Shown one piece after another: positions 524 to 62,700 of a DNA stretch of 64,000 nt. Made by a program: the position numbers and the translations under genes. This DNA comes from an uncultured Dehalococcoidia bacterium (lineage in GTDB: Bacteria > Chloroflexota > Dehalococcoidia > Lucifugimonadales > GCA-2712585), in the NCBI GenBank assembly GCA_958295715.1, contig OY282371.1:1406267-1470266 (forward strand), written 5' to 3'. The notes beneath the pieces were generated by a model, which was not told where the DNA came from, searched no databases, and saw only the letters and a list, made by a program, of their open reading frames with translations. How positions within the stretch are numbered: the stretch's first letter is position 1; the number at the start of each line of letters is the position of its first letter.

Positions 524-1990
524 TTAGAGGCCCAGGAGAGCAGCGGCGGCGGCTATCAGCCCAGCGACCCGCTCCGGGTCGTCGGCCTCGGCATAGACGC
601 GGACCAGCGGCTCGGTGCCTGAGAACCGGACCATCAGCCACCCGTTGGCGAAGCGGAAACGCAGGCCGTCCACGGCGTCGGTGGAGGCCACCTTCATCCC
701 GCCTATCTCCGTCAGGGCGGCGGCGGCCCGCAGCCTGCCCTCCAACTCCGCCCGGTTCGCGGGGTCAAAGGCGATGTCGCGGCGGTCGTAGCTCCACTCC
801 CCAACCTTCCCGTACAGGTATTGCAGCAGTTCCGAGGGCCTCATCCCCTTGCGAGCCATGAATTCAAGGATGAACAGGCTGCTCAGTATGCCGTCCCGTT
901 CGGGGATATGTCCGCGAAAGCCGTAGCCGCCGCTCTCCTCGCCGCCCATCAGGGCGTTCTCCTTCATCATCAAAGGGCCGGCGTACTTGAAGCCGACCCC
1001 CGTCTCTAGAACGGGGACGCCGTAGATTTGGCCCAGCTTGAACAGCATGTCTGAGGAGGTGATGGACTTGACGATGGGGCCTCTCGCGCCCTTCACGTCC
1101 AGCAGGTAGAGGGCCAGGAGGGCGAAGACCTGGAGGGTGTTGAGATAGCGGCCCTTCTCGTCCACGACGCCTAGCCTGTCGGCGTCGCCATCGTAGGCGA
1201 TGCCCACGTCGGCCTTCCCGTTCGCCACCAGCTTTGAAAGGAGTTGGAGGTTGTCGGCGATGGGTTCGGGCTGCTGCATTCCCGGGAAGGCGGGGTTCAC
1301 CTCGCTTCTGATTTCGGCGACGGGGTCTTTCGCTCCCTCAAGGAGCATGGGCAGATACCCGGCGCCTGAGCCGTGCATGGCGTCGACCACTATGTCCAGC
1401 CCCGAATTTCTGATGGCGTCCAGGTCAACCAGGCGGCCTATCTGCTCCACGTAGGGAGGCGTCGGGTCAATCTCCCTCGCCAGGCCCTGAGCCGCCGCCT
1501 GAGAGAAGGGAATGGAGTTGACCCGGTTCGCGTCAGTTCCAGCGATAAGCTCTTCCAACCGCGCCACAATCTCGGGGGAGGCGCTGCCGCCGTAGTGGGG
1601 CTTGAACTTGAAGCCGTTCCACTGCGGGGGGTTGTGGCTGGCGGTTATCACCGCCGCGCCGCCCGCGTTGTGAACCAGCACGTTGTAGCTCGCCACGGGG
1701 GTGGGACAGGACTCGCGGCAGAGGAGGGTTGGAATGCCGTTGCCGGCGAACACCTGCGCGGCGCAGAGGGCGAACTCCCTGGATGCGAACCTGGTGTCGT
1801 AGGCCACCACCAGTCCCTTGCCGGGCGGGTGGACCTCGCGCGTGTAGCCGGCCACGCCCTGGGCGCAGAGGGCGACGTTCCGGAAGGTGAAGTCGTCGGC
1901 GATAATGGCCCGCCATCCGTCGGTGCCGAATTTGATTGTCACGAGTAAGTCCTCCAGGGTTGTTTGGGCTGTCGAGGGGTATTTTATCAC
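524..1990 (-). CDS. phosphoglucomutase/phosphomannomutase family protein
   Basis: 488-aa ORF. Catalytic Ser loop TASHNPPQWNGFK, metal site YDGDADR, sugar loop GGEESGG. Confidence 0.9.
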   Translation of the reverse strand: MIKYPSTAQTTLEDLLVTIKFGTDGWRAIIADDFTFRNVALCAQGVAGYTREVHPPGKGLVVAYDTRFASREFALCAAQVFAGNGIPTLLCRESCPTPVASYNVLVHNAGGAAVITASHNPPQWNGFKFKPHYGGSASPEIVARLEELIAGTDANRVNSIPFSQAAAQGLAREIDPTPPYVEQIGRLVDLDAIRNSGLDIVVDAMHGSGAGYLPMLLEGAKDPVAEIRSEVNPAFPGMQQPEPIADNLQLLSKLVANGKADVGIAYDGDADRLGVVDEKGRYLNTLQVFALLALYLLDVKGARGPIVKSITSSDMLFKLGQIYGVPVLETGVGFKYAGPLMMKENALMGGEESGGYGFRGHIPERDGILSSLFILEFMARKGMRPSELLQYLYGKVGEWSYDRRDIAFDPANRAELEGRLRAAAALTEIGGMKVASTDAVDGLRFRFANGWLMVRFSGTEPLVRVYAEADDPERVAGLIAAAAALLGL

Positions 1991-12283: not shown

Positions 12284-12399
12284 AGGCGCTTACCTGCACA
12301 GTGAATCTATGAGCGTGAACGGACGAATACATTTTATCTGTCCCACAGGCTTAAGGCAAGGCGAGGGGATGATAGCCGGGGCCTTTTTGCCTCCGGGGG

Positions 12400-12775
12400 G
12401 GCTCCCCTCTCGTCATTCCCGCGCAGGCGGGAATCCATCCCATCCCCTCTTTTACCTCAAGGCAATCGCACACCGGCGCAAAGAGCCAGTAAGAGCTAGT
12501 CTTGTTACGGACAAACCGGCTTAAGGTCTCCATCCCTCGTTAGGGGAGAGACGGGGGCGGGGGTCGCGGCGCAACGGGTGGCGGGTTGCCCAAGCACAAC
12601 GGAGTGGGGGGAGGGGATGGATTCCCGCCTTCGCGGGAATGACGGGAGGGGCGGCGGCGGGTATGACGGCGGCGGGCGGGCCGGAATCGGGAAGACCCCA
12701 ATCCAAAACCAACGCTCCGCAAAACAAAAATGGGCACACGTGCCCTTCCCGCCTGCGCGGGAATGACGGCGGGTA
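12400..12775. repeat. REP/NIME-like repeat cluster
   Basis: Fwd unit at 12412-12436 and rev unit at 12619-12643. Composite rev unit at 12697-12769 = hairpin module (GGGCACacGTGCCC at 12732-12745) fused to a REP. Confidence 0.85.
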
Positions 12776-12823
12776 GGCGGGCGTGACGAAGGGGACCGGG
12801 GCGGTGGCTTTGGCGGGCGGCTG

Positions 12824-27224: not shown

Positions 27225-27701
27225 ACGCCTCTCGCCCCCTGCCGGCCATCGACCCTCCCTTCCGTCATTCCCGCGCAGGCGGGAAGGGCACGCGTGCCCG
27301 CTTAGGTTTGAAGAGCGTGGTTCTGCGTTGGAGGCTTTTGCCCACCCCTATCCGCATTCCCGCCCTCTTATCCGTCATTCCCGCGCAGGCGGGAATCGAT
27401 CCCCTCCTTCCGGCATTGCGACGGGGCAACGGCGCAACGGCTCGCAACCCCGGCCCTCTTTCCGTCATTCCCGCGCAGGCGGGAATCCATCTTCCACCCC
27501 TCTATTACGCCAAGGCGACCCGCGCAAATCGCCGGCAAACGCTTGCCCCCTTTCCGGCCAAGACCCTGAATGCCCCCCATATCGTCAAGGAGACAAGGAC
27601 GGCAGCGCCACGAGGGACGCGCCGGAAACGCCTCTGCGGGTGAGACCGGAATTCGGGGCGCCGGATTTGGGTCGGGGCCTCCCTGGATTCCCGCCTGCGC
27701 G
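27225..27701. repeat. REP/NIME-like repeat cluster
   Basis: Composite fwd unit at 27264-27335 (REP + GGGCACgcGTGCCC + T-rich tail). Fwd REPs at 27374-27398 and 27464-27488. Module C at 27556-27664. Truncated rev REP at 27685-27701. Confidence 0.85.
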
Positions 27702-27755
27702 TAGAAACCAGGGAGGGAGGCGGGCCTGGGAGAGCGAGCGACCCCCGTCCGGAGT

Positions 27756-28124
27756 CTAGAACTTCAGCCGGGTTTTGCGATGGGCTACTGTGATGACCTG
27801 GTATTCCATACAGCCAACGACGCCGCCTGTGGACTTCACGACAACCAGGTAAATGTTAAAGGCCTCGCTCTGCCTCTTATACCCCTCGGCGCCTATCTTA
27901 GAGCGGGCGCGCCTGCGGCATCTGCTATCCATTGAAACGATGTATACGTTCTTATTGTCACGCTTCTTATTAGACTTACGATATTTGTGGTGTCTGAGTT
28001 TGCCATTGAGCAACATGGTTTCTATGTGTTCCCGATTTATTCCGCGCTGCTGGAACCTCCTTTGAGCGTGATCCGAGAAAAAGTAACTGAAACCGGGGTC
28101 ATGGTAGAAATTCACCACGTTCAT
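27756..28124 (-). CDS. DUF4258-like small protein (toxin-type fold)
   Basis: 122 aa, low GC (line 27961 hand count 40%). FSDHAQRRFQQRGINREHIETMLLNG and a C-terminal NIYLVVV..VITVAHRK pattern. Confidence 0.55.
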   Translation of the reverse strand: MNVVNFYHDPGFSYFFSDHAQRRFQQRGINREHIETMLLNGKLRHHKYRKSNKKRDNKNVYIVSMDSRCRRRARSKIGAEGYKRQSEAFNIYLVVVKSTGGVVGCMEYQVITVAHRKTRLKF

Positions 28125-28264
28125 GTGAAACCTCCCTTAAGTTATGTTCTCTGAAGCTGCTGCGCCCAAACCTCGCCCACAGATTAACCATAAATCAGGC
28201 TGTGCGGGGATATTTACGACGGGGCGAGCGGCATGGCGCCGCGACTTCAATTCAGCGAAAAAGT

Positions 28265-28292
28265 ATTATAACACAAAAGAGCATTTTGTCAA
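28265..28292 (-). promoter_or_regulatory. near-consensus promoter TTGACA-16-TATAAT
   Basis: Minus-strand hexamers at 28292-28287 and 28270-28265. About 135-nt leader to the ATG at 28124 with a GGGAGG RBS. Confidence 0.5.
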
Positions 28293-28337
28293 GTACTTAT
28301 GCGCCGGATTTCAGGGGAAATAGGGGGATGGGGGGAT

Positions 28338-28443
28338 GGATTCCCGCCTGCGCGGGAATGACGGACAGGAGGCGGGAATGCGGACAGGGGTAGGCAGAAG
28401 CCTCCAACGCAGAACCGGCTCTCTTCAAAACTAAGTGGGCGCC
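28338..28443. repeat. REP unit plus reverse hairpin/terminator-like module
   Basis: Rev REP at 28338-28362. Reverse module B at 28399-28443 (ccaacgcagaaccggctctcttcaaaactaagtGGGCGCCC), about 60 nt downstream of the stop of the 590-aa gene and in terminator orientation. Confidence 0.8.
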
Positions 28444-28502
28444 CCGGTCCCCGCTTACCCGCAAGCGCCAGCTAGTCTACCCACCCCGGCAGCCGGCGCC
28501 GG

Positions 28503-30275
28503 CTAGGTCTGGCGGGTCTTCTGGTGGGGGCCGAGGTAGCCTATCAACACCTTCTGCCGCTCGTCGTCCCAGGCGAAGGCGATGCGGATGTTGTACTGCG
28601 GGTTGCCGCGCACGCCCTTCCCAACGTGGTGGTCCAGGTTATAGAGCCTGTCCTCCACGTGGGTGGTGTACCACTCGAGGAACTGCTCCCTCGTCACCTT
28701 GGTCTGGCCCGACTTGTAGGACCAGCCGGGGCAGGCCTCCTTTATCCCGCTCTTGAAGTCAGGCGCGGAGCCGGGGTTGGGGTTGACCCGGTGGGAACGG
28801 TACTCGGTGGCAAGCCAGGCCAGGGCGTCAAAGACCTCCTGCGGGTTCCGGAAGGGGTTGTCCTTGTCGGACTTGGAGTTGAGGGCAAAGAGCAGCTCGT
28901 CGGGGTAGGTCTTCTTGGCGTGGTCGATGGCCTCGTTGACGCTGGCGAAGGTCGGCGTCTGCGACTCGTCGTCCTGGCCGCCGGCCGCCTTCGCCGCGAC
29001 GTACATGTCGCGCCAGTACTCCTCCATCTGCTGGAGACGCGATATCTCGCTCCTGAACTCGCTGTTCTCAGCGTCAAGGAACTCCTTGTCATCCTGGAGG
29101 CCGGAGTTCTGCCGCTCCAACTCCTGGTTCCGCGACTCCAAGGCCCGGTAGTCCTCAGCCGGGACCACCTGGTCCTCCGGGGCGGGTCCGGCTTCAAGGC
29201 CACCGGCGCCGGCGGGGGAGCCCTCGGTTCCGTCTAACGGCTCGGACGGGTCTCCGCCGGCTTCTTGGGAAGCGGCTTCCGCGGCGGCGGCGGCCTTCTC
29301 CTGGGCGGCGTCGTAATCTGACATGAGGCCGCGCCAACTCTCCACGGCGGCCAGGATGCCATCCTCCTTTTCCGACCTCTGAGGGGCGCGGGCGACCTCC
29401 TCCGCCCTTGAGGGGGCCTGAGGGCGCAGGAGGCGGTACTCCTCCAACAAATCCCCCAGCCGGTTGGCCACGGCCAAGGCCTCCGGGATGACGCCGGCCC
29501 TTGAGGTGGCGTCGTCTAGCCAGGAGTCGAGGGAAACGTCCAGGTACAGCAGGTCGTCCCGGAACTCGCCGGCGGCCTTAGAGATGGCGTCTTTTAGGGC
29601 TTCTGTCTGAACGCCGGCGCGGTCGGCCTCCTTTGTCACCGCGATTTTCGCCAGAGCGTGAACGAAGCCTTCAACGTCGTCCCAGTCCGGCGCGTCTGGG
29701 GGAAGCGCGTCCAACTGCTGAAGGAAGCCGTCAAGGAGGGAAGAACTGGGCGGCGACGGCTCCCGGGAGTCCGGGACGCGGCCTGAAAGACAGCAGAGCA
29801 TGAGGTGAACGTCGTTCACGTTCAGGCCGTCGTCAGCCTCAAGGATGGCGGCTAAATGGGCCGTATAGTCCGCCCACTCCCACAGGGAGTCGAAACTGCC
29901 CTCCTTGAAGCCGGGGCAGCCGGCGGGGATGCCCGCGCCTTCGAGTCGTTCAGCCACGGCGCCGCGGAGTTGGGGGTGGGACTCGACCCACGTCTTGAGG
30001 ACGGCGCCCGCCAGTTTATCGGCTCCTTCGATAATCCCCACTAGGGCGGGAATTTTGAGTTGATTGGGCGACGCACGGTCCGCGTTCTGGAAGCCGTCCA
30101 CCTTCACGTTGTTGCGGATGGCGTAGTTGAAGGAGTCGCGGAGGCTTTTCGGCGCCTTGCCCCGGAATTCAAGGGCGCGTTTGACGACGGCTTGGGCATA
30201 TTCGGGGTCTAACCGGTGGAACATGGCGTTGATGGGCAGGTCTGGGCCGGTTGCGGTGGCGTTCTCGGTGGTCAT
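28503..30275 (-). CDS. hypothetical 590-aa protein, acidic linker + coiled coil + conserved-looking C-terminal domain
   Basis: Start set at ATG 30275 (AGGAGG 9 nt upstream). No catalytic motif recognised. Heptad-like ESRNQELERQNSGLQDDKEFLDAENSEFRSEISRLQQ. C-terminus ..NIRIAFAWDDERQKVLIGYLGPHQKT. Confidence 0.7.
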   Translation of the reverse strand: MTTENATATGPDLPINAMFHRLDPEYAQAVVKRALEFRGKAPKSLRDSFNYAIRNNVKVDGFQNADRASPNQLKIPALVGIIEGADKLAGAVLKTWVESHPQLRGAVAERLEGAGIPAGCPGFKEGSFDSLWEWADYTAHLAAILEADDGLNVNDVHLMLCCLSGRVPDSREPSPPSSSLLDGFLQQLDALPPDAPDWDDVEGFVHALAKIAVTKEADRAGVQTEALKDAISKAAGEFRDDLLYLDVSLDSWLDDATSRAGVIPEALAVANRLGDLLEEYRLLRPQAPSRAEEVARAPQRSEKEDGILAAVESWRGLMSDYDAAQEKAAAAAEAASQEAGGDPSEPLDGTEGSPAGAGGLEAGPAPEDQVVPAEDYRALESRNQELERQNSGLQDDKEFLDAENSEFRSEISRLQQMEEYWRDMYVAAKAAGGQDDESQTPTFASVNEAIDHAKKTYPDELLFALNSKSDKDNPFRNPQEVFDALAWLATEYRSHRVNPNPGSAPDFKSGIKEACPGWSYKSGQTKVTREQFLEWYTTHVEDRLYNLDHHVGKGVRGNPQYNIRIAFAWDDERQKVLIGYLGPHQKTRQT

Positions 30276-30484
30276 GGCGTTGAGCCTCCTATTTTGGCGA
30301 TGGTGAGCTATCATACCTGCTGCCAGCCCAACGCGCCACCCTTGGAGCGTCCCAAGGCCGGCCGGAGGCTTTACGCTGGCTTGAGGTTGTCGCTCTGACG
30401 GGATGGAGACGGGGACGCGGCGGGAGGAAACGACCCCTTGGCCGCCTTGCCGGTCAGTCGTGGAGGGCCAGCAAGGATAAGCGG

Positions 30485-32743
30485 CTACTTGCTAAGGAAG
30501 ACTTTGAATTGGGCCGGGTTCTGGCCGAATTTGGCGACAAGGTTTCCACAAGACAAAGTGATTCGCTTCGCCGACAACTGACTATTCAAGTACAATCCGT
30601 TTGTCAGTTGCTTAGGATTACCGAAAGGCCGTTTGCTTGGATGAACTGACGACGTATGAATCAAATACGTTTTGCTACTCTTCTTATCCGCAAGTTGGAT
30701 CCCCTTGCCACTCTCGGTAGTAAGCAGACCTCGTCTTATCGACCACTCGGCGGTCTCAAGGATGAGGCTAATCCAAACATCTTTAATCGCCTTCTCTTTT
30801 TCGCCTGGAAATCGAACGCGCTGCGGCTTTATCGACCTGTCTTTACTTCCCGTGCTCTTGTGCCACTGGCCAAGACCCTCAAAGGTCACCCACTCACCCG
30901 GACCGGTTGGAGGAAGGTCCGGGAGGTCTTGGGATGAGTCTTCAAGGACGCTTTCCTCCGATGAGCCGCCTGAGACCAGACCGACCTCCCTCGCTTCAGC
31001 CTCAAAGAGCCCCATCAGCCGGTCCCTAACCTTATTCAAGACAAGCCCTTTGTCTACCGGCTGGGCCTCTAGCTCGCCAAATTCTTTCTTCCAATCCGCA
31101 AGCTCTTTCCTGAAGCCCTCATCCCATTTAACGAATTGCCATGACCATTGTAGCCTAGTTCGTGGCTGTTCTGACGGTGGAAGCCCGGTAAGATGACGCT
31201 TAAACCGCTTTTCCAGCTTGTTCTCGTTGCTTAACTCCGACTCACGGGTCTCAATGTCGCGCTTCAACTCATCCATTCGCTGCTCACGAACTTTCACATG
31301 GCGTATCCGCTCATTCTTTATCAGGTTCTTAAGGAAGGGGTCACGGTCGGGTGAGAGTTCGTCATCGGGCTGCGGCATAGACGCCTCCTCTAGTTCTTTG
31401 GTAACAGACAATTTGGCCTTAATATGGGCGTCGTAGTGGCACCAATCGCAAACCGGGTCGTGGTTTTTAGGGCAGGATGCCTTCAACCCCCACCGCTTCC
31501 ACGCCCGCCACACGACACACCGGCCGCAGATTTCGCCGAAGGGCTCGCCGCAATGGCCGCACTGGTGGCTGGAGGCGGGAGATAGGCCTTTGCAGTCCGG
31601 GCAATGGACCACCGGGGATTCTCCGGATGGCCGCACATGTTCCCTAAGTTTTAACGACCACTCCCTGACTTCCTCCGGCAGCCCGTGGAGCGGCGCGTTG
31701 CCAGCCAAGTCCAGGACCAGACAGTCGCCACCGTCCTCTTTTGGACGCAGGCCGCGTCCCACCATTTGCAGGTAGAGGGATAGGCTCAGGGTGGGACGGG
31801 TCAACATGACACAGGCGGCGTCGGGCAGGTCGAATCCCTCGGTGGCTACGTCCACGTTGACCAGGGCTTTAAGGGTTCCCTGTTGGAACCGGGCTATGAT
31901 ATCAGCGCGCTCCTCGTCAGGAGTTTTACCCACCATACAGGCGGCGGGAATACCGGCGGCATTGAACTCTTCGACAAGGTTTTCGGCGTGTCCTACCGAA
32001 ACGGCGTAGACAACGGTTTGACGATCATCGCCATGGCTTTGCCAGAACCGCAAGGCGCCGGCGGTGAGAATGTCACGGCCTTCGTTCGCCCGTTCAATGC
32101 CCGGCTCGTTGTAGTCCCCCGTGCTGGCAACCGTCCCGCCCTTAATCCGCTCCTCCTCTGCCGGCGATAGGACCCGCGCCTTGCAGAGCCATTTGTCGGA
32201 CTGTAAGTCTACGACCTGAGGGCCAGAGAGCAAGGTTTTGAACAGGTGATCAAACCCTTCCTTCTCAGAGAGGCGCCACGGCGTGGCCGTCATGCCCAAT
32301 ACCGGACCGGGCCATTGCTCCATGGCCCTAGCCCAACCCTCGGCTGGGGCATGGTGGGCCTCGTCTATAATCATCAGGTCGCCGTCGTCGTAGCGGTCCC
32401 ACACGCTTCTATGGTCGTTGCGGCGGCTCACTGTCTGGGCCATGAGGATAACGACGCCGTTGGTTATTACCGGAGCGTCGGAGCTTGGAGTCCAAACGAT
32501 GTTAGCCGCGGCCGGAACCCCGGCTTGGCTCAACATGCTCTCCGTTTGTTTGGCCAACCCCTTGCGGTGGGTGAGCCAGACCGCTTTGCGTCCGTCTCCC
32601 AGCCACCGGTTCAACAGCGCGCCGGCGATTTGGGTTTTTCCGCCGCCGGTGGGGAGTTGCATCATAACCCTGGCGTCCGGACGAGCCAGGGCCTCATCCA
32701 CCTGCCTTAGCAACTCCTCCTGGTAGGGCCGTACTTCAATCAA
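30485..32743 (-). CDS. SF2 (ResIII/DEAH) helicase with Cys-rich zinc-ribbon and unassigned C-terminal domain
   Basis: 752 aa. RPYQ, PTGGGKT (aa 31-37), DEAH (127-130), MTATP, QMVGRGLR. 9 Cys in aa 381-435. The 3' third of the gene is low GC (45-47% in two hand-counted lines). Confidence 0.85.
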   Translation of the reverse strand: MIEVRPYQEELLRQVDEALARPDARVMMQLPTGGGKTQIAGALLNRWLGDGRKAVWLTHRKGLAKQTESMLSQAGVPAAANIVWTPSSDAPVITNGVVILMAQTVSRRNDHRSVWDRYDDGDLMIIDEAHHAPAEGWARAMEQWPGPVLGMTATPWRLSEKEGFDHLFKTLLSGPQVVDLQSDKWLCKARVLSPAEEERIKGGTVASTGDYNEPGIERANEGRDILTAGALRFWQSHGDDRQTVVYAVSVGHAENLVEEFNAAGIPAACMVGKTPDEERADIIARFQQGTLKALVNVDVATEGFDLPDAACVMLTRPTLSLSLYLQMVGRGLRPKEDGGDCLVLDLAGNAPLHGLPEEVREWSLKLREHVRPSGESPVVHCPDCKGLSPASSHQCGHCGEPFGEICGRCVVWRAWKRWGLKASCPKNHDPVCDWCHYDAHIKAKLSVTKELEEASMPQPDDELSPDRDPFLKNLIKNERIRHVKVREQRMDELKRDIETRESELSNENKLEKRFKRHLTGLPPSEQPRTRLQWSWQFVKWDEGFRKELADWKKEFGELEAQPVDKGLVLNKVRDRLMGLFEAEAREVGLVSGGSSEESVLEDSSQDLPDLPPTGPGEWVTFEGLGQWHKSTGSKDRSIKPQRVRFPGEKEKAIKDVWISLILETAEWSIRRGLLTTESGKGIQLADKKSSKTYLIHTSSVHPSKRPFGNPKQLTNGLYLNSQLSAKRITLSCGNLVAKFGQNPAQFKVFLSK

Positions 32744-34625: not shown

Positions 34626-34680
34626 GCCGTGGGGGGAACGGTTGCGTCTCCCCCCATCCGCCCTTCCCGCCTACTATTCC

Positions 34681-34996
34681 GTCATTCCCGCGCAGGCGGG
34701 AAGGGCGCGTGCGCCCACTTTGTCTTGACGAGCGTTCGCCCTGCTTTGGGCTGCTAGATTCCCGCCTTCACCTCTGTTCCGTCATTCCCGCGCAGGCGGG
34801 AAGGGCGCGTGCGCCCACTTTGTTTTGAAGAGCGTTGGTCCTGCTTTGGGCTGCTAGATTCCCGCCTCCCCCATCCGTCATTCCCGCGCAGGCGGGAAGG
34901 GCGCGTGCGCCCACTTTGTTTTGAAGAGCGTTGGTCCTGCTTTGGGCTGCTAGATTCCCGCCTCCCCATCCGTCATTCCCGCGCAGGCGGGAATCC
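34681..34996 (+). repeat. tandem array of 3 composite units (100, 96, 95 bp) plus terminal REP
   Basis: Units start at 34681, 34781 and 34877. Each unit = GTCATTCCCGCGCAGGCGGGAA + GGGCGCgtGCGCCC + ACTTTGTTTTGA.. + tggtcctgctttgggctgctagattcccgcc. Closing REP at 34972-34996. Confidence 0.9.
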
Positions 34997-35146
34997 ATCC
35001 CCTCTTGACCTTGCGCCGGGACAACCGCTCCACGGCGCGCGCTCCCATCCGTATAAGCGTCCCGGGTTGGCGCCTTCCGGCTCTCGCCCACAGTTATTAT
35101 CCGTAATGGTTGGATGGTCTGTTCATCTGATGAGAGGAGGGAAGAT

Positions 35147-35225
35147 GGATTCCCGCCTGCGTGGGAATGACGGGAAGGGGGGCGGGAATGACGGAAGGGG
35201 GAGAAAAGGGAATGACGGATAAGAG
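35147..35225. repeat. reverse REP followed by tandem GGGAATGACGG half-units
   Basis: GGATTCCCGCCTGCGTGGGAATGACGG at 35147-35171, then gcgggaatgacgg and gggaatgacgg repeats. Confidence 0.8.
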
Positions 35226-35315
35226 GGCGGGAGAGGGCGCGGGCATGGTGGAAGGAAGGCATGACGGCGGCGGCGGGCCGGTGCCGCCCCCGCCGCCGGG
35301 CCACCCCCGCCGCGG

Positions 35316-36082: not shown

Positions 36083-37190
36083 TTGCAGGAACTGAGGCAT
36101 CAACTCCAAGAGATGACCCTTAAGGTCGGCCGGGTGCTCTCCCGCCTTTGACGTCTCAGCCAAGGAACGGGAGATAGCGAAAATCGAAAAGGAGGCCTAT
36201 GAGCAGGCCTTCTGGGACGACCCCCAGTCCGCTCAGGCCCAAATGCGCCGCCTGTCGCGCCTCAAGGAGACGGTCGGCGTCTGGCGCGGCATGGAGGAGC
36301 AGGGCGCCGCCCTTCTGGAACTGGTGGACATGTCCTTGGCGGAACAGGACGACTCCCTGGCCCATCAGCTGGCCGACGAGACCCACGCCTTCTTCACGGC
36401 CTTGGAGGAGAAGGAGGTGGAGATAACCCTATCAGGCCCCTACGACGACCGCCCGGCCATCCTATCGATACAGTCGGGGGCGGGGGGCGTCGACTCCCAG
36501 GACTGGTCCCGGATGCTCCTCCGCATGTATTTGCGATGGGCCGAGCGCCACGGCTGCCACGCCCAGGTCCTTGACCTGTCCGAGGGGGAGGAGGCCGGCA
36601 TTAAGAGCGCGGCCCTTGAGATAGACGGCAGTCTGCCCTTTGGCTATCTCAAGGCTGAAAAGGGCGTGCACCGGCTGGTGCGCCTCTCCCCCTTCAACAG
36701 CGACCACCTCCGGCATACCTCATTCGCCCACGTGGAGGTGCTGCCGGCCGCCGGTGAGGAGGACGCCGAGGTGGACATACGCCCCGAGGACCTGAAGATA
36801 GACTTCTTCCGCTCCAGCGGCCCCGGGGGGCAGAACGTGCAGAAGGTGTCATCCGCCGTGCGGCTCACCCACCTGCCCACCGGCCTGGTGGTTTCCTGCC
36901 AAACGGAGCGCTCCCAACGCCAGAACCGGGAAAACGCAGCCACCATCCTGAAGGCGCGGCTCCTCCAGTTGCGTATGGAGGAGCGGGCCAAGGAGTTGGC
37001 GGAGTTGCGGGGCGAGCGCGCCCCCGCCGAGTGGGGCAGTCAGATTAGAAGTTACGTGCTTCACCCCTACAAGCTGGTGAAGGACCACCGCAGCGAGTTC
37101 CAGGTATCCGACGCCGACGCCGTGCTGGACGGCGACATCGACGACTTTCTCAAGGCGTATCTGCTGGCGACGGTGGCCGAACAGCCGTGA
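36083..37190 (+). CDS. prfB: peptide chain release factor 2 (join 36083..36148, 36150..37190; programmed +1 frameshift)
   Basis: TTG start 5 nt after AGGGAGG. 22-codon ORF0 ends CTT TGA C (36146-36152). The +1 frame continues DVSAKEREIAKIE... and contains SPF and GGQ motifs. Combined length about 368 aa. Confidence 0.9.
36146..36152 (+). promoter_or_regulatory. prfB +1 frameshift site CUU UGA C
   Basis: In-frame UGA at 36149-36151 after the Leu CTT codon. The downstream ORF is in the +1 frame (36150). Confidence 0.85.
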
Positions 37191-37191
37191 A

Positions 37192-37219
37192 GGGCGCCTA
37201 GGCGCCCCTTTAGTTTTGA
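37192..37219 (+). terminator. intrinsic-terminator-like hairpin after prfB (also a copy of repeat module B)
   Basis: GGGCGCC-TA-GGCGCCC starts 2 nt after the TGA and is followed by CTTTAGTTTTGA. Confidence 0.6.
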
Positions 37220-38110
37220 CGAGCGCCGGCCCTGCGTTAGGGGATGGATTCCCGCCCCTCCTTTCCGTCATTCCCGTGAAAACGGGAATCCAGGAACCCT
37301 ACACAGCAGAACCAACGCCCCAAACCCCGGCGTCGACCCGTCGGTTGCGCCCTCAACGCGGGTCTTGGCCGTAACGGGACTAGCGCTTACCGGCGATTTG
37401 CGCTGTTGCCCTAGTCTAATATAGGGAGGAAAGATGGATTCCCGCCTGCGCGGGAATGACGGAGTGGGGCAGGCGGGAAGGGCGCGGGTGCCCGCTTAAG
37501 TTTTGAAGAGGGCTGTTCCTGCGTTTGGGGGCTTCCTGGATTCCCGTTTTCACGGGAATGACGGATAAGAGGGCGGGAATGGCGATTGCGCTAGAGTCTT
37601 GCCAAGGGAGGCGTGGCCTCCCGCTTGCCTGCTAAGGGGCCGCCAAAGCGTTTACCCTTTCCCGTCATTCCCGCGCAGGCGGGAATCCATCTTCCTTACC
37701 GCTGCTGCGACGCCTTGGAGCCACGCGTTGGCCGCCCTCCGGCCATTGCCCGCCCCTCCCCTTTTCCGTCATTCCCGCGCAGGCGGGAATCCAGGAAGGT
37801 TTCGACTCAAAACCGGCGCCCCGAATTCCGGCCTCGCCCGTAGAGGCGGTTCCGGCGCACACGCCCCCTCGTGGACGCTGCCGTCCTTGTCCCCTTGACG
37901 AAATGGGGGCATTCAGGGTCTTGGCCGTAAGGCCCCGGCCCTTACCTGCGCGGCGCGGCCCTGTCGCAACCAAGTAAGGAAGATGGATTCCCGCCTGCGC
38001 GGGAATGACGGAGGGAGGGGAGCGGGAATGACGAAGTGGGGCAGGCGGGAAGGGCGCGTGGGGGAGCGGGAATGACGTGGGGGGTAGGCGCGGCCTCGCG
38101 CCGGGGGAGC
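37220..38110. repeat. largest REP/NIME-like mosaic cluster
   Basis: REP units at 37267-37291 (variant GTCATTCCCGTGAAAACGGGAATCC), 37436-37460 rev, 37528-37552 rev variant, 37664-37688 fwd, 37768-37792 fwd and 37985-38009 rev. Partial composite at 37469-37530. Module C at 37813-37926. Half-unit run at 38000-38080. Confidence 0.9.
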
Positions 38111-38116
38111 CGGGGC

Positions 38117-39322
38117 CTACTCCGGGTGGATGATGTGGCCCAGCTTTTCGCGTTTCGCCTTCAGGTACTTTTCGTTATCCTTGGTGGCCTTCACCTCAAT
38201 GGGTATCCGCTCCACCACCTCCAGGCCAAAGCCGCTAAGCTCTGTAATCTTCTGCGGGTTGTTGGTCAGGAGCCGCATACGGCCCACGCCCAAGTCCACC
38301 AGAATCTGCGCCCCGGCGCTGTAGTTCCGCAGGTCCGGCTCGAACCCCAACTCCTCGTTGGCCTCAACGGTGTCCAACCCGTCATCCTGCAAGTGATATG
38401 AGCGTATCTTGTTGTGAAGCCCAATGCCCCGCCCCTCCTGCCGCATGTACAGGAAGGCGCCCTTGCCCTCCGACGCGATGGCCTTCAGGGCCTGTTCCAC
38501 CTGCTCGCCGCAGTCGCACCGGACGCTGCGGAAGATGTCCCCCGTGAAGCACTGGCTGTGTATGCGCACCAGGATAGCCTCGTCCGGCCTCCACTCGCCC
38601 AAGGTCAGGGCCATGTGCTGCTCCTGCTCAAAGGCGCTCTTGTAGCCGTACACCGTGAACTCGCCGTACCTGGTTGGAAGCCGGGCCTCGCCCACCCTCT
38701 GAGCCAGCTTCTCCGTCCGTCTCCTGTAGGCTATCAGTTGAGCTATGGAGATGATCTTTATGCCGTGCTCGCTGGAGAAGGACTCCAAGTCCTCTATCCG
38801 CGCCATAGCCCCGTCCGGCTTCATTATCTCGCACACCACGGCGGCGGGACTCATGCCGGCCATCTTGGCCAAGTCCACGCTGGCCTCCGTGTGACCGGGG
38901 CGCGCCAGCACCCCGCCCTCCCTGTACCGCAGGGGGAAGGTGTGGCCCGGCTGGGCGAAGTCCTTGGGGCTGCTGCCGGGGTCTATCACCGCCTTAACCG
39001 TGGCCGCCCTGTCGTAGGCCGATATGCCGGTGCTGGTGTCCTTCATGTAGTCGATGGACATGGCGTAGGCGGTGCCGTGCATACTGCGCTCGCTGGCCTC
39101 CCCCATCATGGGGATGTTCAGCCGCTCTAGGTACTCGGCGGTGACCGGCATACAGGGCAGGCCGCGGGCGTGTTTCGTCATAAAGTTGATGGCTTCCGGG
39201 GTCACCGCGTCGGCGGCTATGCAGATGTCGCCCTCGTTCTCCCGCTTGGCGTCGTCAACGACTATAAGGAACTTACCCTCCTTGTAGTCCTTAAGGGCCT
39301 CTTCTATCGTCGCCAGAGCCAT
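38117..39322 (-). CDS. ribBA: bifunctional DHBP synthase / GTP cyclohydrolase II
   Basis: 401 aa. Both domains are recognisable (DDAKRENEGD..; HSQCFTGDIFRSVRCDCG). Confidence 0.95.
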   Translation of the reverse strand: MALATIEEALKDYKEGKFLIVVDDAKRENEGDICIAADAVTPEAINFMTKHARGLPCMPVTAEYLERLNIPMMGEASERSMHGTAYAMSIDYMKDTSTGISAYDRAATVKAVIDPGSSPKDFAQPGHTFPLRYREGGVLARPGHTEASVDLAKMAGMSPAAVVCEIMKPDGAMARIEDLESFSSEHGIKIISIAQLIAYRRRTEKLAQRVGEARLPTRYGEFTVYGYKSAFEQEQHMALTLGEWRPDEAILVRIHSQCFTGDIFRSVRCDCGEQVEQALKAIASEGKGAFLYMRQEGRGIGLHNKIRSYHLQDDGLDTVEANEELGFEPDLRNYSAGAQILVDLGVGRMRLLTNNPQKITELSGFGLEVVERIPIEVKATKDNEKYLKAKREKLGHIIHPE

Positions 39323-41722: not shown

Positions 41723-41914
41723 CACGGCCCCCGGCCCCGCGGCGTTGCCCTCTCCTACTCCTTTCCCATCACTCCTGCCTTCTGTTCGTCATTCCCCCTC
41801 CCCCCTCGTCGCGCCGGGCCAACCGCACTAGGGCGCGCCCACCCATATGACACCCGCCGGTAGGTCAGAGCCGAGGCGTGGTCTATGGGGTCTGTTCTAC
41901 GACGTGGCCTTCCT

Positions 41915-42025
41915 GGATTCCCGCCTACGCGGGAATGACGGAAGGGAGGGGGCGGGAATGCGGAGGGGTGGGGGCGGGAATGACGGAGGGGAGGGGGCGG
42001 GAATGCGGAGGGGAGAGGGGGGATG
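41915..42025. repeat. reverse REP plus about 4 tandem GGGGCGGGAATG(A/C)GGAGGGG half-units
   Basis: GGATTCCCGCCTACGCGGGAATGACGG at 41915-41941, followed by about 30-bp periodic half-units up to about 42025. Confidence 0.8.
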
Positions 42026-42155
42026 GTGGCGTGGCAGGGACGACGGCGGGGCAAGGGGAACAGCGGCGGGAGGGGAGGGGGCTGGCGGCGTGGCTTGGGG
42101 GATGGATGGCATGTATAGTAGTGTGCTGCCACGGAACGCCGGATGGACGGAGGCC

Positions 42156-53698: not shown

Positions 53699-53723
53699 GG
53701 ATTCCCGTTTCCACGGGAATGAC
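53699..53723. repeat. solitary REP variant (GGATTCCCGTTTCCACGGGAATGAC)
   Basis: Same arms as the family (ATTCCCG..CGGGAAT) with a different loop. Confidence 0.8.
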
Positions 53724-58474: not shown

Positions 58475-60577
58475 GGAGGTGGGCATACGGTAGTCGAGGA
58501 AGGTGGGGTTGGTCATGCGGCCCGCGTCGTTGTAGAAGTACTCCTCGTTCAAGGCCCAACCGATGCCCTGAACGACCCCGCCCTGGATTTGGCCTTCCAC
58601 GTAGTCGGGATGCACCGCCTTCCCCGCGTCCTGTAGGGCGGTGTACCGGAGTATCTGCACCTTGCCCGTTTCCGGGTCCACCTCAACGTCCACGATGTTG
58701 ACGGCGAAGGCCGCGCCCACGCCCCGGGGGTCGACGGCGGCGCGCCCGACTATGGGGCCGCCCGTCGAGTTCAGCATTTCGGCCAACTCCTTGAAGGAGA
58801 GCCTGAGTTGGGGGTTGGTACGGTGAAGGAAGACGCCATCCTCCAAAACCACCTCGTCGGTGGGAACGTCCCACACCTCGGCGGCGCGCCGCGTCATCTG
58901 CCGCCTAATGTCCTGGGCCGCCTCCCAGCAGGCCCACCCGGTCTTGAAAGCCACGCTGCTGCCGCCGGTGCTGGAGGTGTAGCCGATGGAGCCGGTGTCG
59001 CCAATGGAGGGTATCACGTCGGTTACGGGTATCGTTAAGACCTCGGCCACGTGCATGGCCACGGCCACCCGGCTGCCGCCGATGTCGGGGGAGCCTTCCA
59101 CCAGACTGACGGAGCCGTCGGCGTTCACGCTGGCGAAGGCGGTGGATGGCCCGGTGTTGTTTCGCCAGAAGCCGGCGGCCACGCCCCTGCCCCGGTTCGG
59201 CCCCGTGAGGGGAGCGGCCAGATGGGGGTGGTCCTGAGCGGCCCGGACGGTCTCCACGAAGCCGATGCGGGGGAAGGACACGCCGCTAATCTGGCGCGTC
59301 CCCTCGGCGGCGGCGTTCAGGAGGCGAAACTCCAACGGGTCCATGCGCAGCTTCTCGCAGATGACGTCTATCACCGTCTCGGCGGCGAAGGCCGCGGCGG
59401 GGGCGCCCGGCGCGCGGTAGGCGGCGGTCTTGGGCTTGTTTATAACCACGTCGTAGGCCTCCACCCGGGCGTTGGGTATGTCGTAAGGGCCGAAGATGCA
59501 CTGGGCCCCGGCGCTTATGGGCGCGCCCGGGTAGGCGCCGGCCTCGTAGGCCAGGAAGGCGTCGGCGGCGGTGATGCGTCCCTCCTCGTCAACGCCCATC
59601 TTAACCCGCATGTAGCTCCCGGAGGTGGGGCCGGTTCCCTGAAACACCTCGGAGCGGTTCATGGTCATCTTGACGGGACGGCCGGACTTCTTCGATAGGA
59701 GGGCGGCCAGGGTTTCCAAGTAGGTGGAGAGTTTGCCGCCAAAGCCGCCGCCGATTTCCATGGGAATGACCCTGACGTTGGACACGGGTATCCCCAGGAT
59801 GATGGCCACGTTGTCGCGGATGGCGAAATGGCCCTGGGAACTGCACCACACGGTCAACTCGCCGGCGGGGTTCCAAAGGGCCGTGGCGCTGTGCGGCTCA
59901 ATGTAGCCCTGGTGCACGGTGGCCGTGCGGTACTCCCTGTCCACCACCACGTGGGCCTCGGCGAAGCCCTTCTCCGCGTCCCCCTTTTCCAGAATGAAAT
60001 GGTTGGAAACGTTGGTGCCCTTTCCGGCGTCGTCCTCGTCCCGGAGGCCGCCCGGCTGGATGCCCGCGAAGGAGAAGGTCGCCAGCCGGTCGTGGAGGAC
60101 CGGGGCGTCCTCCTCCATAGCCTTTAGAACGTCGGTGACCTCCGGGAGGGGCTGGTAGTCAACCTTTATGGCGGCGAGGGCCTCTTCAGCGACGTGGAGG
60201 CTGTCGGCGGCGACGGCGGCGACGGCGTGGCCCACGTAGAGGACTTTTTCGCCCGCGAGCACGTTGTTGCTCAGGAACTTGGGGTTCACCATGGCCCCCT
60301 CGCCCAGGTCCGCCGCGCGGCCGGAGGGCTGGGGCAGGTCTTGAGCGGTGGCCACGGCTCTGACGCCCGGGATGGCCAGGGCCGGGGTCGCGTCTATGGA
60401 GTTAACGCGGGCGTGGGGGTGAGGGCTTCTGAGGACAGCCCCGTAGATGAGGCCCGGCAGGTTGACGTCGGCCCCGTACTGGGCGCGGCCCGTCACCTTG
60501 TCGGCGCCGTCGTGTCGTATGGGCCTGGTTCCCACGACGTTGTAGCTTCCCGTGGCGAGAACGATGTTTGAGTCCAT
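58268..60577 (-). CDS. xanthine dehydrogenase/aldehyde oxidase/CoxL-family molybdopterin-binding large subunit
   Basis: 769 aa. Typical Ald_Xan_dh_C/C2 layout (GRAQYGADV, GGGFGGK, ..PGHPFGVRGVGE). Confidence 0.9.
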   Translation of the reverse strand: MDSNIVLATGSYNVVGTRPIRHDGADKVTGRAQYGADVNLPGLIYGAVLRSPHPHARVNSIDATPALAIPGVRAVATAQDLPQPSGRAADLGEGAMVNPKFLSNNVLAGEKVLYVGHAVAAVAADSLHVAEEALAAIKVDYQPLPEVTDVLKAMEEDAPVLHDRLATFSFAGIQPGGLRDEDDAGKGTNVSNHFILEKGDAEKGFAEAHVVVDREYRTATVHQGYIEPHSATALWNPAGELTVWCSSQGHFAIRDNVAIILGIPVSNVRVIPMEIGGGFGGKLSTYLETLAALLSKKSGRPVKMTMNRSEVFQGTGPTSGSYMRVKMGVDEEGRITAADAFLAYEAGAYPGAPISAGAQCIFGPYDIPNARVEAYDVVINKPKTAAYRAPGAPAAAFAAETVIDVICEKLRMDPLEFRLLNAAAEGTRQISGVSFPRIGFVETVRAAQDHPHLAAPLTGPNRGRGVAAGFWRNNTGPSTAFASVNADGSVSLVEGSPDIGGSRVAVAMHVAEVLTIPVTDVIPSIGDTGSIGYTSSTGGSSVAFKTGWACWEAAQDIRRQMTRRAAEVWDVPTDEVVLEDGVFLHRTNPQLRLSFKELAEMLNSTGGPIVGRAAVDPRGVGAAFAVNIVDVEVDPETGKVQILRYTALQDAGKAVHPDYVEGQIQGGVVQGIGWALNEEYFYNDAGRMTNPTFLDYRMPTSLDLPMIDTVIVETPNPGHPFGVRGVGEVPIVPPMAAVANAIYDAVGVRMTALPMSPASLLEEIWKGKG

Positions 60578-60639: not shown

Positions 60640-60986
60640 GGCTTTCATGGGCGGGGTTGCCTCCCGTCCGTCATTCCCGCTCTCACCCTCTTATCCGTCA
60701 TTCCCGCGCAGGCGGGAAGGGCGCGTGCGCCCACTTAGTTTTGAGTAGCGCTGGTTCTGCGCGTTAGGTGTCCGTCATCCGCCGCCGGGTTACCCCCGTT
60801 CCAACGCGCGCCCCTCCCTTCGTCATTCCCGCTCCCTCCCTTCCGTCATTCCCGCGCAGGCGGGAAGGGCGCGTGCGCCCACTTAGTTTTGAGGAGAGCC
60901 GGTTCTGCGTTGGAGGCTTCCCGGCGTTCCCACCTCCCCACTCGTCATTCCCGCTTCTCCCTCCCGTCATTCCCGCGAAGGCGGGA
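60640..60986. repeat. REP/NIME-like repeat cluster, right end interrupted by IS
   Basis: Composite fwd units at 60697-60768 and 60845-60917 (GGGCGCgtGCGCCC hairpins). Half-units at 60669 and 60830. REP at 60966-60986 is cut after GCGGGA. Confidence 0.85.
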
Positions 60987-61977
60987 TGTGAATTCACATT
61001 TCAAGTGCAACACCTTGTTCCGGAAAGTTTCGGCTGGGGTCCGGTAGTCCAGACACTTGCGAGGGGTGTGGTTGTAGGCTTGGACCAGTTGGGTGAAGCG
61101 CTCCTCGGACACCGCCGCCAGGTCGGTCTTGCGGGGCAGGGTCCTCCGCAGCCGGCCAATGGCGTTCTCCACGCCGCCCTTCTGCCAGGGGGAGCGGGTG
61201 TCGCAGAAGAAGGTCTGGATGCCGAGGGCGTGGAGAAGGTGGTGGCGGGCGAACTCCGTGCCGTTGTCGAAGGCGACCGTCTGGCGCCACTCCTGGGGCA
61301 AGGGCCCCAAGGGCCTCGGCGATAGCAGTGGCGATGGGTCCCGCGGCCTTCCCCGGGGGTCTGAGGGCTATGAGCAGGCGGGTGCAGCGCTCGTGGAGGA
61401 TGAGGACGACTTGGCCGTAGGCGCTGAAGAGCATGGTGTCGGCCTCCCAGTGGCCCGGCTTCTGGCGGTCATCCGCATCCTGAGGACGCTCTTCCAAGGG
61501 CAGGCGGTCGGGGATGAAGGACACGGAACTGCCGCCCCGGCGCCCCCGCCAGCCTCGTCTGGACTTGCGCCGGGGCAGGTAGAGCCGCCAGGAGTAGTCC
61601 TTCCTGCGGGCTATCTGGGCGTAAATGAACCGGTAGATAGACTCATGGGAGATGACCGTCCTTCCCTTCTCCAGGGCCAGCCGGCCGGACACCTGCTCCG
61701 GGGACCAGCCTAGCTCGAGACGGGCGAGGACATCCTCCCGAAGGGTGGGGTCGCGGGTCAGCCGGTGACCGTGCCAACGGCGGGCGTGGGCCTGTTGGTC
61801 GGCGTACTTGGGCCGGTAGCCGCCATTGGCCGAAGGATTGCGCTTCAACTCCCGAGCAACCGTTGATGGCGAGCGATCCAGAGCTGCCGCGATTTGGCGG
61901 AGGGAGTGTCCCGTGGCATGTAGTCGGGCAATTTCACACCGTTCCACAATGTCGAGCTGCGTGTAGTGGAGTCCCAT
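60945..61977 (-). pseudogene. IS30-family transposase, frameshifted
   Basis: N-terminal HTH + core in the frame of ORF 60994-61977 up to ..AIAEALG. C-terminal ..LPQEWRQTVAFDNGTEF..PWQKGGVENAIGRLR in the frame of ORF 60945-61310. The shift maps to a GGGG run near 61305. The distal frame has no stop inside the IS. Confidence 0.75.
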
Positions 61978-62021
61978 GGCAACACCTCAATTAAGTGTTG
62001 CACTTCGTTTGTGAGTTTAGC
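60987..62021 (-). mobile_element. IS30-family insertion sequence (about 1035 bp)
   Basis: Imperfect terminal IRs sharing ..TCACA....AAGTGCAACAC (left at 60987-61013, right at 61995-62021). An IS30-type DDE transposase lies inside. The flanks reconstitute one REP unit with a GA duplication (60985-60986 / 62022-62023). Confidence 0.8.
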
Positions 62022-62700
62022 GAATCCATCCCCCCTTATCCCCGTTGCGACAGGTGGCTGGCGCGGGATTGCCTCCCCGTCCGTCATTCCCGCGCCCTCC
62101 CTTCCGTCATTCCCGCGCAGGCGGGAATCCATCTCCTCTTATCCCCGTTTCGACAGGTGGCTGGCCCGTGGTTGCCGCCCCGTCCGTCATTCCCGCTTCC
62201 CTCTCCCGTCATTCCCGCGCAGGCGGGAATCCATCCCCTCTTATCCCCGTTGCGACAGGTGGCTAGCGCGTGGTTGCCGCCCCGTCCGTCATTCCCGCCC
62301 CCCTCCATCCGTCATTCCCGTGAAAACGGGAATCCAGGAACCCTTCATGGCAAAACCAGCGCTTCAACCCCTAGCGTCGCCTTGTGGGCGGCCCTCCGGC
62401 CCGCCGCTCGTAGGGGTTGGGTTGTCCGTTCATATGATTAGAGGGGGAAGATGGATTCCCGCCTGCGCGGGAATGACGGATTCGGGGGGCGGGGTTCGGG
62501 GCGCTGGCTCTGCGTTGAGGCCTTCCTGGATTCCCGCCTGCGCGGGAATGACGGGAAGGGAGGCGCGGGCGGTGGTAGCGAGCGTGACCGGTGGCCCCGG
62601 GGCTTGGGGCGTTGGCTTTGGGGTGTAAGGTTCCTGGATTCCCGTTTTCACGGGAATGACGGATAGGGGGGCGGCAATGACGGATTCGGGCGGGAATTCA
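62022..62700. repeat. REP/NIME-like cluster with a 3 x 102-bp tandem array
   Basis: Tandem units begin at 62022, 62124 and 62226 (..GAATCCATCCCCTCTTATCCCCGTTGCGACAGGTGGCTGGCGCGTGGTTGCCGCCCCGTCCGTCATTCCCGC..). REPs at 62106, 62208 and 62311 (variant) fwd. REPs at 62453, 62528 and 62636 (variant) rev. Confidence 0.9.

Follow-up and report, generated by a model that had tools for sequence, protein, structure and literature searches.

What are the short palindromes that fill the spacer between prfB and ribBA in an uncultured Dehalococcoidia bacterium, and how did so many copies come to lie in the intergenic regions around it? We addressed this question in a 64-kb stretch of contig OY282371.1 (GenBank assembly GCA_958295715.1; hereafter, the window). 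A preliminary description had recognised ten intergenic blocks in it built on one unit with the palindrome ATTCCC-N8-GGGAAT, had likened them to Neisseria intergenic mosaic elements (NIMEs) with their dRS3 repeats, and had pointed to a RAYT (REP-associated tyrosine transposase), IS200/IS605-type or IS110-type enzyme as the possible partner. Our analysis makes it probable that the clusters consist of hairpin repeats of the NTS (Neisseria Transformation Sequence) type or of the related motifs termed SRM (Ssn-related motif), that a homologue of the nuclease Ssn is encoded elsewhere in the genome, that the repeats spread from an NTS-ssn-NTS element, and that they turn over by local recombination.

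A dRS3-type repeat unit in a Chloroflexota genome

The palindrome (ATTCCCNNNNNNNNGGGAAT) is present in 24 exact copies in the window, compared with 0.02 expected from dinucleotide-preserving shuffles. With up to three mismatches allowed, the 25-mer GTCATTCCCGCGCAGGCGGGAATCC was found 26 times (16 on the plus strand and 10 on the minus strand; 0 expected), and the GTC...C flanks around the palindrome are kept in 26 of these 26 matches. Five additional copies keep the arms and carry a variant loop, TGAAAA in four of them and TGGAAA in one, with palindromes at 37270, 37540, 62314 and 62638 (TGAAAA/TTTTCA) and at 53701 (TTTCCA); all five had been recognised before, within a few bases of these positions except for the copy placed at 37528, which is off by 8-12 nt. 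The window therefore holds about 31 full or near-full units (26 plus the five variant-loop copies), in agreement with the more than 30 copies in both orientations first reported, at a density of about 0.27-0.37 per kb. Every unit is intergenic and lies within one of the ten blocks. The tag-arm motifs GTCATTCCC/GGGAATGAC occur 45 times in the window, about 14 of them as orphan half-units; a lone GGGAATGAC 9-mer at 59762, within a gene, is probably there by chance.

The unit is laid out as a CGTC tag, an 8-bp stem (ATTCCCGC), a 4-nt loop (GCAG), the second strand of the stem (GCGGGAAT) and a tail of CCA followed by T or G. As single-stranded DNA (ssDNA), it forms a hairpin of -10.1 kcal/mol (z -4.6 relative to shuffles) whose 8-bp stem carries a loop of 4 nt. 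The tag is CGTC in every copy, and the RAYT-type tag GTAG is absent. The published 28-nt NTS consensus, CGTCATTCCCGCGMAVGCGGGAATCYRG, which contains dRS3 (Chenal et al., Nat Commun 2025; PMC11893778), has 17 copies in the window at no more than one mismatch, the threshold by which that study defines NTS/SRM, compared with 0 in 100 shuffles. Two super-families of tagged repetitive extragenic palindromes (REPs) have been defined, and dRS3 was assigned to the family termed CGTC-1, which is characterised by a CGTC (or TGTC) tag, a stem of 8 bp that opens with AT, a loop of 4 nt, a tail of CCA and a mainly inverted dimeric arrangement (Di Nocera et al., 2013; PMC3733652). Each of these features is found in the window unit, inverted dimers included. 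Because of the 17 NTS-consensus matches together with the CGTC-1 tag, stem, loop and tail, the unit is, on the strength of its sequence, a member of the same repeat family as Neisseria dRS3 (NTS/SRM, CGTC-1 REP) and not merely NIME-like.

The likeness to Neisseria dRS3 and NIMEs covers the palindrome with the same commonest centre (GCGCAGGC), the bracketing of 50-200-nt repeat modules by units in intergenic mosaics, and the hypervariability of the clusters between strains. It does not extend to the companion modules, which here are non-RS and confined to the lineage, or to the host, which belongs to another phylum. One such module, termed module B, is made up of the hairpin GGGCGCGTGCGCCC with ACTTWGTTTTGARGAG behind it. 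Nine copies are present in the window, frequently joined to a unit that keeps only GGGAA of its right arm, and 7 of the about 31 units have their right arm replaced by it in this way (GGGAAGGG...). When module B was searched for as a lineage marker, it was found elsewhere only in L121, the sister strain described below, and a blastn comparison of the window with loci that included N. lactamica and N. mucosa gave no match at 1e-10. The companion modules are thus, as far as these comparisons go, lineage-specific and not Neisseria RS, so that the NIME parallel holds for the repeat family and fails for the modules: the architecture is analogous, and the modules are not homologous. Neither a filamentous prophage nor an IS110-type integrase was found in the 64-kb window.

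Outside this genome, the exact 25-mer was found in at least 120 stretches (one genome per species), with source records ranging from 37 to 71% GC. Hosts among the matches listed include Neisseria, Duganella, Cupriavidus, Azospirillum, Sphingomonas, Planctomycetes, Verrucomicrobia, Chloroflexi, Nitrospirae and metagenome-assembled genomes (MAGs) of candidate phyla, as well as others, and inverted pairs of units with their tails pointing inward are very common among these stretches. In N. meningitidis, ATTCCCGCGCAGGCGGGAATC is the commonest 21-mer, with 241 copies (Bertels & Rainey, REPIN preprint). The earlier CGTC-1 survey reported CGTC repeats in five phyla, Chloroflexi not among them, and found large clusters to be rare outside Neisseria and Wolbachia (PMC3733652), whereas here the host is a member of the Chloroflexota and most units are clustered. 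The exact 25-mer also lies on contigs binned to a Nanoarchaeota (DPANN) MAG (L008) and to a Candidatus Wolfebacteria MAG of the candidate phyla radiation (L074), occurrences that could reflect either real horizontal spread or mis-binning.

These results extend the NTS/Ssn hairpin repeats to an uncultured member of the Dehalococcoidia (Chloroflexota), at a density comparable to that in pathogenic Neisseria. The 28-nt sequence, the hairpin, the oriented flanks and the intergenic clustering are all as published for the NTS/SRM-Ssn system (PMC11893778). That study links large motif expansions mainly to symbionts and pathogens and stresses Pseudomonadati, whereas the present host is a free-living-type member of the Dehalococcoidia with 65% GC, many of its units are joined to a module peculiar to the lineage or survive only as half-unit arrays, and the sequence examined contains no ssn. 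Our observations go a little beyond the literature in the host lineage, the fusion of unit and module B, the half-unit arrays, and break-points that lie inside units when two strains are compared.

The ssn gene accompanies the unit across phyla

Which gene, if any, travels with the unit? Clustering of open reading frames (ORFs) from 120 unit-bearing loci returned only ubiquitous families (ABC ATPases, response regulators, short-chain dehydrogenases/reductases) and one small GIY-YIG cluster, with a GIY-YIG ORF adjoining a unit in 5 of the 120 unit-selected loci. At one of these, L028, the gene is bracketed exactly by units, in the order GTCATTCCCGCGCAGGCGGGAATCCAG, 8 nt, ATG...TAA, 4 nt, CTGGATCCCCGCCTGCGCGGGGATGAC; at another, L067, an internally deleted GIY-YIG remnant is bracketed by inverted units in the same manner. 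The protein is of the Ssn type, about 95 aa long with a GIY-YIG domain alone, and is 60-70% identical between very distant phyla.

To this we added 80 metagenome loci picked by protein similarity alone, which, as the best matches to one query, describe its nearest subfamily. Within 150 nt, a unit lies upstream of the gene in 45 of the 80 loci, downstream in 42 and on both sides in 32. Unit density within 100 nt of the gene ends is 4.3-4.4 per kb compared with 0.19 per kb in the other flanks (about 23-fold; 79 loci, leaving out L201 with its giant unit array), and the units are oriented, with 27 of 33 upstream copies in plus orientation and 31 of 34 downstream copies in minus orientation. At L201 itself (metagenome contig Ga0265293_10013693, positions 700-2800), ssn sits inside a satellite-like array of more than 35 unit variants that alternate in orientation and are spaced about 40 nt apart.

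NTS and SRM were previously shown to flank homologues of NMV_0044 (ssnA, cd10448) across bacteria, an arrangement, NTS-ssnA-NTS, that has been likened to an insertion sequence (PMC11893778). Binding by SsnA requires the motif as ssDNA and is limited to the tagged strand; the enzyme cuts a few nucleotides upstream of the motif, still cleaves a split motif whose halves lie on separate strands, and reduces transformation by NTS-containing DNA; the strand-specific binding and cleavage biochemistry comes from the Neisseria and Wolbachia homologues only (PMC11893778). The association of ssn with the unit observed here is therefore an independent reproduction of Chenal et al. (2025), not a discovery.

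No comparable association was seen for the partner expected beforehand. A tblastn search (E<=1) with the Group 2 RayT of E. coli gave 0 matches in the window plus 125 other loci (about 0.9 Mb, 120 of the loci unit-selected), a search with one query in which a single-copy RAYT would seldom fall within the 8-kb samples. Pfam and NCBIfam profiles run on 20 window ORFs identified an IS30 transposase and no Y1 transposase; the remaining window ORFs were judged by eye, from their translations, to be housekeeping genes, which is a weaker basis. The proposal of a RAYT/IS200-605 or IS110 partner was thus not borne out in the sequence covered, and it is ssn that accompanies the unit from phylum to phylum. 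A Ssn homologue labelled 'Chloroflexota' (P0225) was considered as the ssn of the source lineage and rejected; it lies on a contig of 49% GC with a different unit variant.

Organization of the prfB-ribBA spacer

The block that drew attention to the system, 37192-38110, is the entire spacer between the convergent genes prfB (36243-37190, plus strand) and ribBA (38117-39322, minus strand). Its first module B copy begins 2 nt past the prfB stop codon, and the block contains the following features.

37192-37217, plus strand: module B, hairpin GGGCGCCTAGGCGCCC followed by CTTTAGTTTT; terminator-like match, DNA fold -7.6 kcal/mol.
37266-37293, plus strand: variant-loop unit of the NTS type, CGTCATTCCCGTGAAAACGGGAATCCAG; folds at -9.0 kcal/mol (z -3.4) with a 4-nt loop on an 8-bp stem.
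37434-37461, minus strand: NTS unit that pairs in inverted orientation, tails inward, with the one at 37266; one mismatch to the NTS consensus.
37480-37510, plus strand: module B copy, GGGCGCGGGTGCCC followed by GCTTAAGTTTTGAAGAG; repeat family match with a terminator pattern.
37536-37563, minus strand: unit of the NTS type with the variant TGAAAA loop; behind it, at 37573-37583, stands a degenerate half-unit.
37663-37690, plus strand: NTS unit; consensus match.
37767-37794, plus strand: NTS unit with no mismatch to the 28-nt consensus; fold -10.1 kcal/mol, z -4.6.
37983-38010, minus strand: NTS unit forming an inverted pair with the one at 37767; consensus match.
37999-38077, minus strand: orphan half-unit array (tag plus left arm, GCGGGAATGACGG-N10), period 23, 3.5 copies (Tandem Repeats Finder, TRF); tag-arm matches at 38022 and 38066.

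Two terminator-like matches were counted in this region compared with 1.7 in shuffles, and hence there is no excess. Upstream of the block, a programmed +1 frameshift site of prfB (CTT TGA C) lies at 36146-36152, and the long ORF at 36243-37190 starts at position 47 of the RF2 profile.

Across the window, inverted pairs of units start at 49/237, 12412/12619, 34972/35147, 37267/37436, 37768/37985 and 62311/62453. Three of the four pairs first proposed (49/237, 12412/12619 and 37768/37985) are confirmed and span 188-217 nt from start to start; in the fourth, the partner given at 27685 is a truncated unit. The spacers within inverted pairs measure 140-195 nt, longer than in most unit-bearing genomes, and align as loose sub-families in both orientations with a mean column identity of 34%. 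A single MITE family (miniature inverted-repeat transposable elements) was considered for these spacers and rejected, since the identity is so low and the orientation mixed; a mosaic is preferred. CRISPR was likewise rejected, given the irregular spacing and the presence of units in both orientations, and Rfam at gathering thresholds identified no RNA family in the window.

Tandem half-units behind full units, also part of the preliminary description, were recovered by TRF as arrays with a period of 20-23 nt at 4-59, 405-465, 35163-35201, 37999-38077, 41929-42023 and 60812-60855. Half-units also stand upstream of full units in the same orientation, in the window at 62083/62106, 62186/62208 and 62288/62311, and orphan first halves (GTCATTCCCG, with the right arm absent) precede a like-oriented full unit by 19-23 nt in unrelated phyla too (L055, L068, L071, L074, L111 and others). 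Genomic half-unit arrays are not described in the main text of the Ssn paper (PMC11893778). By analogy with the published cleavage of split substrates, such orphan first halves could pair with a neighbouring second half.

The repeats have a practical consequence for annotation, in that about 4 kb of the window yields spurious ORFs (with VIPAQAGI, SFPRRRES and DSRLRGNDG peptides) that should be masked. As had been suspected, these peptides are translations of the unit, their motifs (e.g. VIPAQAGI) being read off it in different frames. The background of high GC was also correctly noted: the window has a GC content of 0.62-0.69 apart from one island.

Clusters are rearranged between near-identical strains

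The nearest named relatives of the window's RibBA are Dehalococcoidia, SAR202 and Chloroflexota MAGs at 69-79% identity. A much closer relative, the sister strain L121, is represented by a 19,992-bp contig of European Nucleotide Archive assembly ERZ19489113; its RibBA identity rounds to 100%, and its genes are 97-99% identical to those of the window. Between these two strains, the presence/absence polymorphism that had been suggested as a check is readily observed. The ribBA-prfB spacer measures 1786 nt in L121 compared with 926 nt in the window, and the longer version contains four copies of the 37754-38054 segment along with reshuffled copies of other modules. The clusters at 34.6-35.3 kb and 41.7-42.1 kb also differ in L121, the former in copy numbers.

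The 41.7-42.1 kb cluster differs by a clean 158-nt indel, with L121 the longer version in the alignment. The indel ends at a half-unit GTCATTCCC and a full unit ...GGGAATCCATCCC, and its end-points have the short repeat TCCC in common. The 158-nt segment in L121 holds a module-B-fused unit and a full unit, of which the window keeps only GTCATTCCCC (41788-41800). Because the indel ends within units and the ends share TCCC, orphan half-units can be deletion scars, and in the two-strain alignment the window's orphan half-unit at 41788 looks like one.

In a more distant syntenic relative, L122 (79% RibBA identity, 58% GC), 0 units were found in 14-21 kb. Taken together, the reshuffling in the sister strain and the unit-free syntenic relative indicate that the expansion is lineage-specific and that its turnover is ongoing, and two near-identical strains could help as a natural experiment on how the repeats multiply. 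The ribBA-prfB spacer of L122 (11207-11552) has CCCCGCCAGTAGGCGGGGATGGCGGG at its end and carries a different small palindrome family (CCCCGATGYGACATCGGGG, in two copies), so that one locus may harbour different hairpin repeats in related lineages.

Explanations for the repeat clusters

On the explanation that we judge probable, the Dehalococcoidia host would encode, or would recently have encoded, an Ssn homologue outside the window, and Ssn would recognise the hairpins whenever the DNA becomes single-stranded, as in replication, in repair or on incoming DNA. The repeat population would descend from an NTS-ssn-NTS element through some copying step, and clusters would then expand and contract locally through slippage, microhomology deletion and unequal recombination between units, leaving half-unit scars. 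In this host, the system might restrict incoming ssDNA, promote genome plasticity or have no role. We regard as unlikely a stronger form of this explanation, in which NTS-ssn-NTS would be the autonomous form of an unrecognised class of GIY-YIG mobile element that is still active here, the inverted pairs its MITE-like derivatives, the L067 remnant an intermediate, and the half-unit arrays split substrates that drive reshuffling through alternative Ssn cuts.

Several observations weigh against descent from, and recognition by, an ssn-encoded nuclease. To our knowledge, Ssn is a nuclease with no known transposition, copying or strand-transfer activity. One ssn allele (P0122) is single-copy and occupies one syntenic locus in 10 of the 10 contexts listed, from different metagenome samples, which suggests that the ssn gene itself is not hopping and resembles the single-copy RAYTs. 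The 64-kb window lacks an ssn, and no GIY-YIG gene was called in the 16.6 kb of L121 that were read. Seven of the about 31 units are fused to module B and about 14 more elements are half-units, forms that Ssn would recognise only putatively. Among genomes with more than 200 motifs, 81% encode an Ssn homologue and 19% do not (PMC11893778); given the 81% co-occurrence, an ssn in the source genome is likely but not certain. In addition, the Neisseria repeats have been attributed to a Group 2 RAYT by Bertels & Rainey.

This last attribution underlies the main rival, which we disfavour and consider improbable: a REPIN/RAYT system in which the units are REPs and the inverted pairs are copied by a single-copy IS200/IS605-like RAYT elsewhere in the genome. 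The window resembles REP/BIME (bacterial interspersed mosaic element) and REPIN-RAYT systems in its short extragenic hairpins, unpaired tag, inverted pairs and mosaic clusters, with inverted, tails-inward pairs common both in the window and elsewhere, and NTS/Ssn in other genomes also shares a partner gene in single copy that its own repeats flank, together with an enzyme that recognises an ssDNA hairpin. Moreover, Bertels & Rainey treat ATTCCCGCGCAGGCGGGAATC as the master sequence of the Neisseria REPINs and connect it with NMAA_0235, a Group 2 RAYT. However, the tag is CGTC and not the GTAG of RAYT substrates, the partner enzyme is a GIY-YIG nuclease and not an HUH/Y1 transposase, and the RayT search returned no match in about 0.9 Mb. 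No tyrosine transposase gene was flanked by CGTC repeats in any species surveyed (PMC3733652), and the gene that is flanked by units is ssn.

The hairpins might instead be selected host regulatory elements (terminators, stabilisers of mRNA 3' ends or protein-binding sites) without a dedicated nuclease or mobility. All copies are intergenic, the prfB-ribBA block lies between convergent genes with a module resembling an intrinsic terminator right behind prfB, and roles of this kind are known for E. coli REPs (reviewed in PMC3733652). We nevertheless see little likelihood in this account, as several blocks, those at 12.4 kb and 41.9 kb, lie between divergent genes and adjoin their 5' ends, units occur in both orientations, and terminator-like matches do not exceed the shuffles (2 compared with 1.7). 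The clusters also differ wholesale between near-identical strains and are lacking in the syntenic relative, and selection for regulation leaves unexplained an identical 25-mer across phyla of 37-71% GC. An assembly or binning artefact, with collapsed or chimeric repeats, was one of the two outcomes that the preliminary description named as fatal to its proposal; the source is apparently metagenome-derived, and repeats are hard to assemble. Such an artefact is nonetheless extremely unlikely, given that the independently assembled L121 contig carries matching unit types at three intergenic loci that it shares with the window, the flanking genes are intact and syntenic, and the unit also occurs in isolate genomes of many genera.

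Other repeat clusters and neighbouring features

The remaining clusters of the window are as follows.

4-465: cluster 3' of the gene at 524-1990 (minus strand); three NTS units (48-75 plus, 235-262 minus, 388-415 minus), two half-unit arrays and module B.
12399-12793: cluster with an inverted NTS pair (12411-12438 plus, 12617-12644 minus) and a chimeric fusion of unit and module B at 12743-12767.
27251-27722: cluster in which a unit is joined to module B at 27264; further units lie at 27374 and at 27463-27490, and the inverted partner near 27687 is truncated.
28336-28450, minus strand: single NTS unit, half-unit and module B.
34668-35257: cluster with a 96-nt composite (unit-module B fusion) repeated 3.3 times in tandem at 34678-34993.
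34668-35257, same cluster: inverted pair (34971-34998 plus, 35147-35171 minus) and half-unit arrays.
41788-42034: cluster with an orphan half-unit at 41788 (plus), an NTS unit at 41913-41940 (minus) and 4.3 half-units with period 22 at 41929-42023.
53699-53723, minus strand: solitary unit with the TGGAAA loop, downstream of cysS.
60660-60987, plus strand: left part of a cluster, with half-units and two module-B-fused units; an IS30-family insertion interrupts the final unit (from 60966) directly behind GCGGGA.
62022-62700: right part of a cluster, starting with the remainder GAATCCATCC of the interrupted unit.
62022-62700, same part: NTS units at 62105 plus, 62207 plus, 62451 minus and 62526 minus; variant-loop units at 62311 plus and 62636 minus.

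A 102-nt composite, other than the 96-nt one, is repeated 3.1 times at 62022-62336 (TRF). The IS30-family element itself occupies 60988-62021, within an NTS unit, and encodes its transposase on the minus strand at 60994-61977 (NCBIfam transpos_IS30, E 9e-39). Its junctions read ...GCGAAGGCGGGA|TGTGAATTCACA on the left and ...GAGTTTAGC|GAATCCATCC on the right, with an apparent 2-bp GA duplication. Since the element sits inside a unit, the blocks listed separately as 60640-60986 and 62022-62700 are one split cluster.

Finally, a lower-GC island at 27756-32743 (GC 0.57-0.63) has unit clusters on both sides and is 92.8% identical to the sister strain compared with 97-99% for the neighbouring genes. 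It encodes a DUF4258 protein, a ResIII/Helicase_C helicase of 752 aa and a 603-aa protein that matches HEC-07, a candidate defence family of PADLOC (E 3.5e-18), and may be a defence island.

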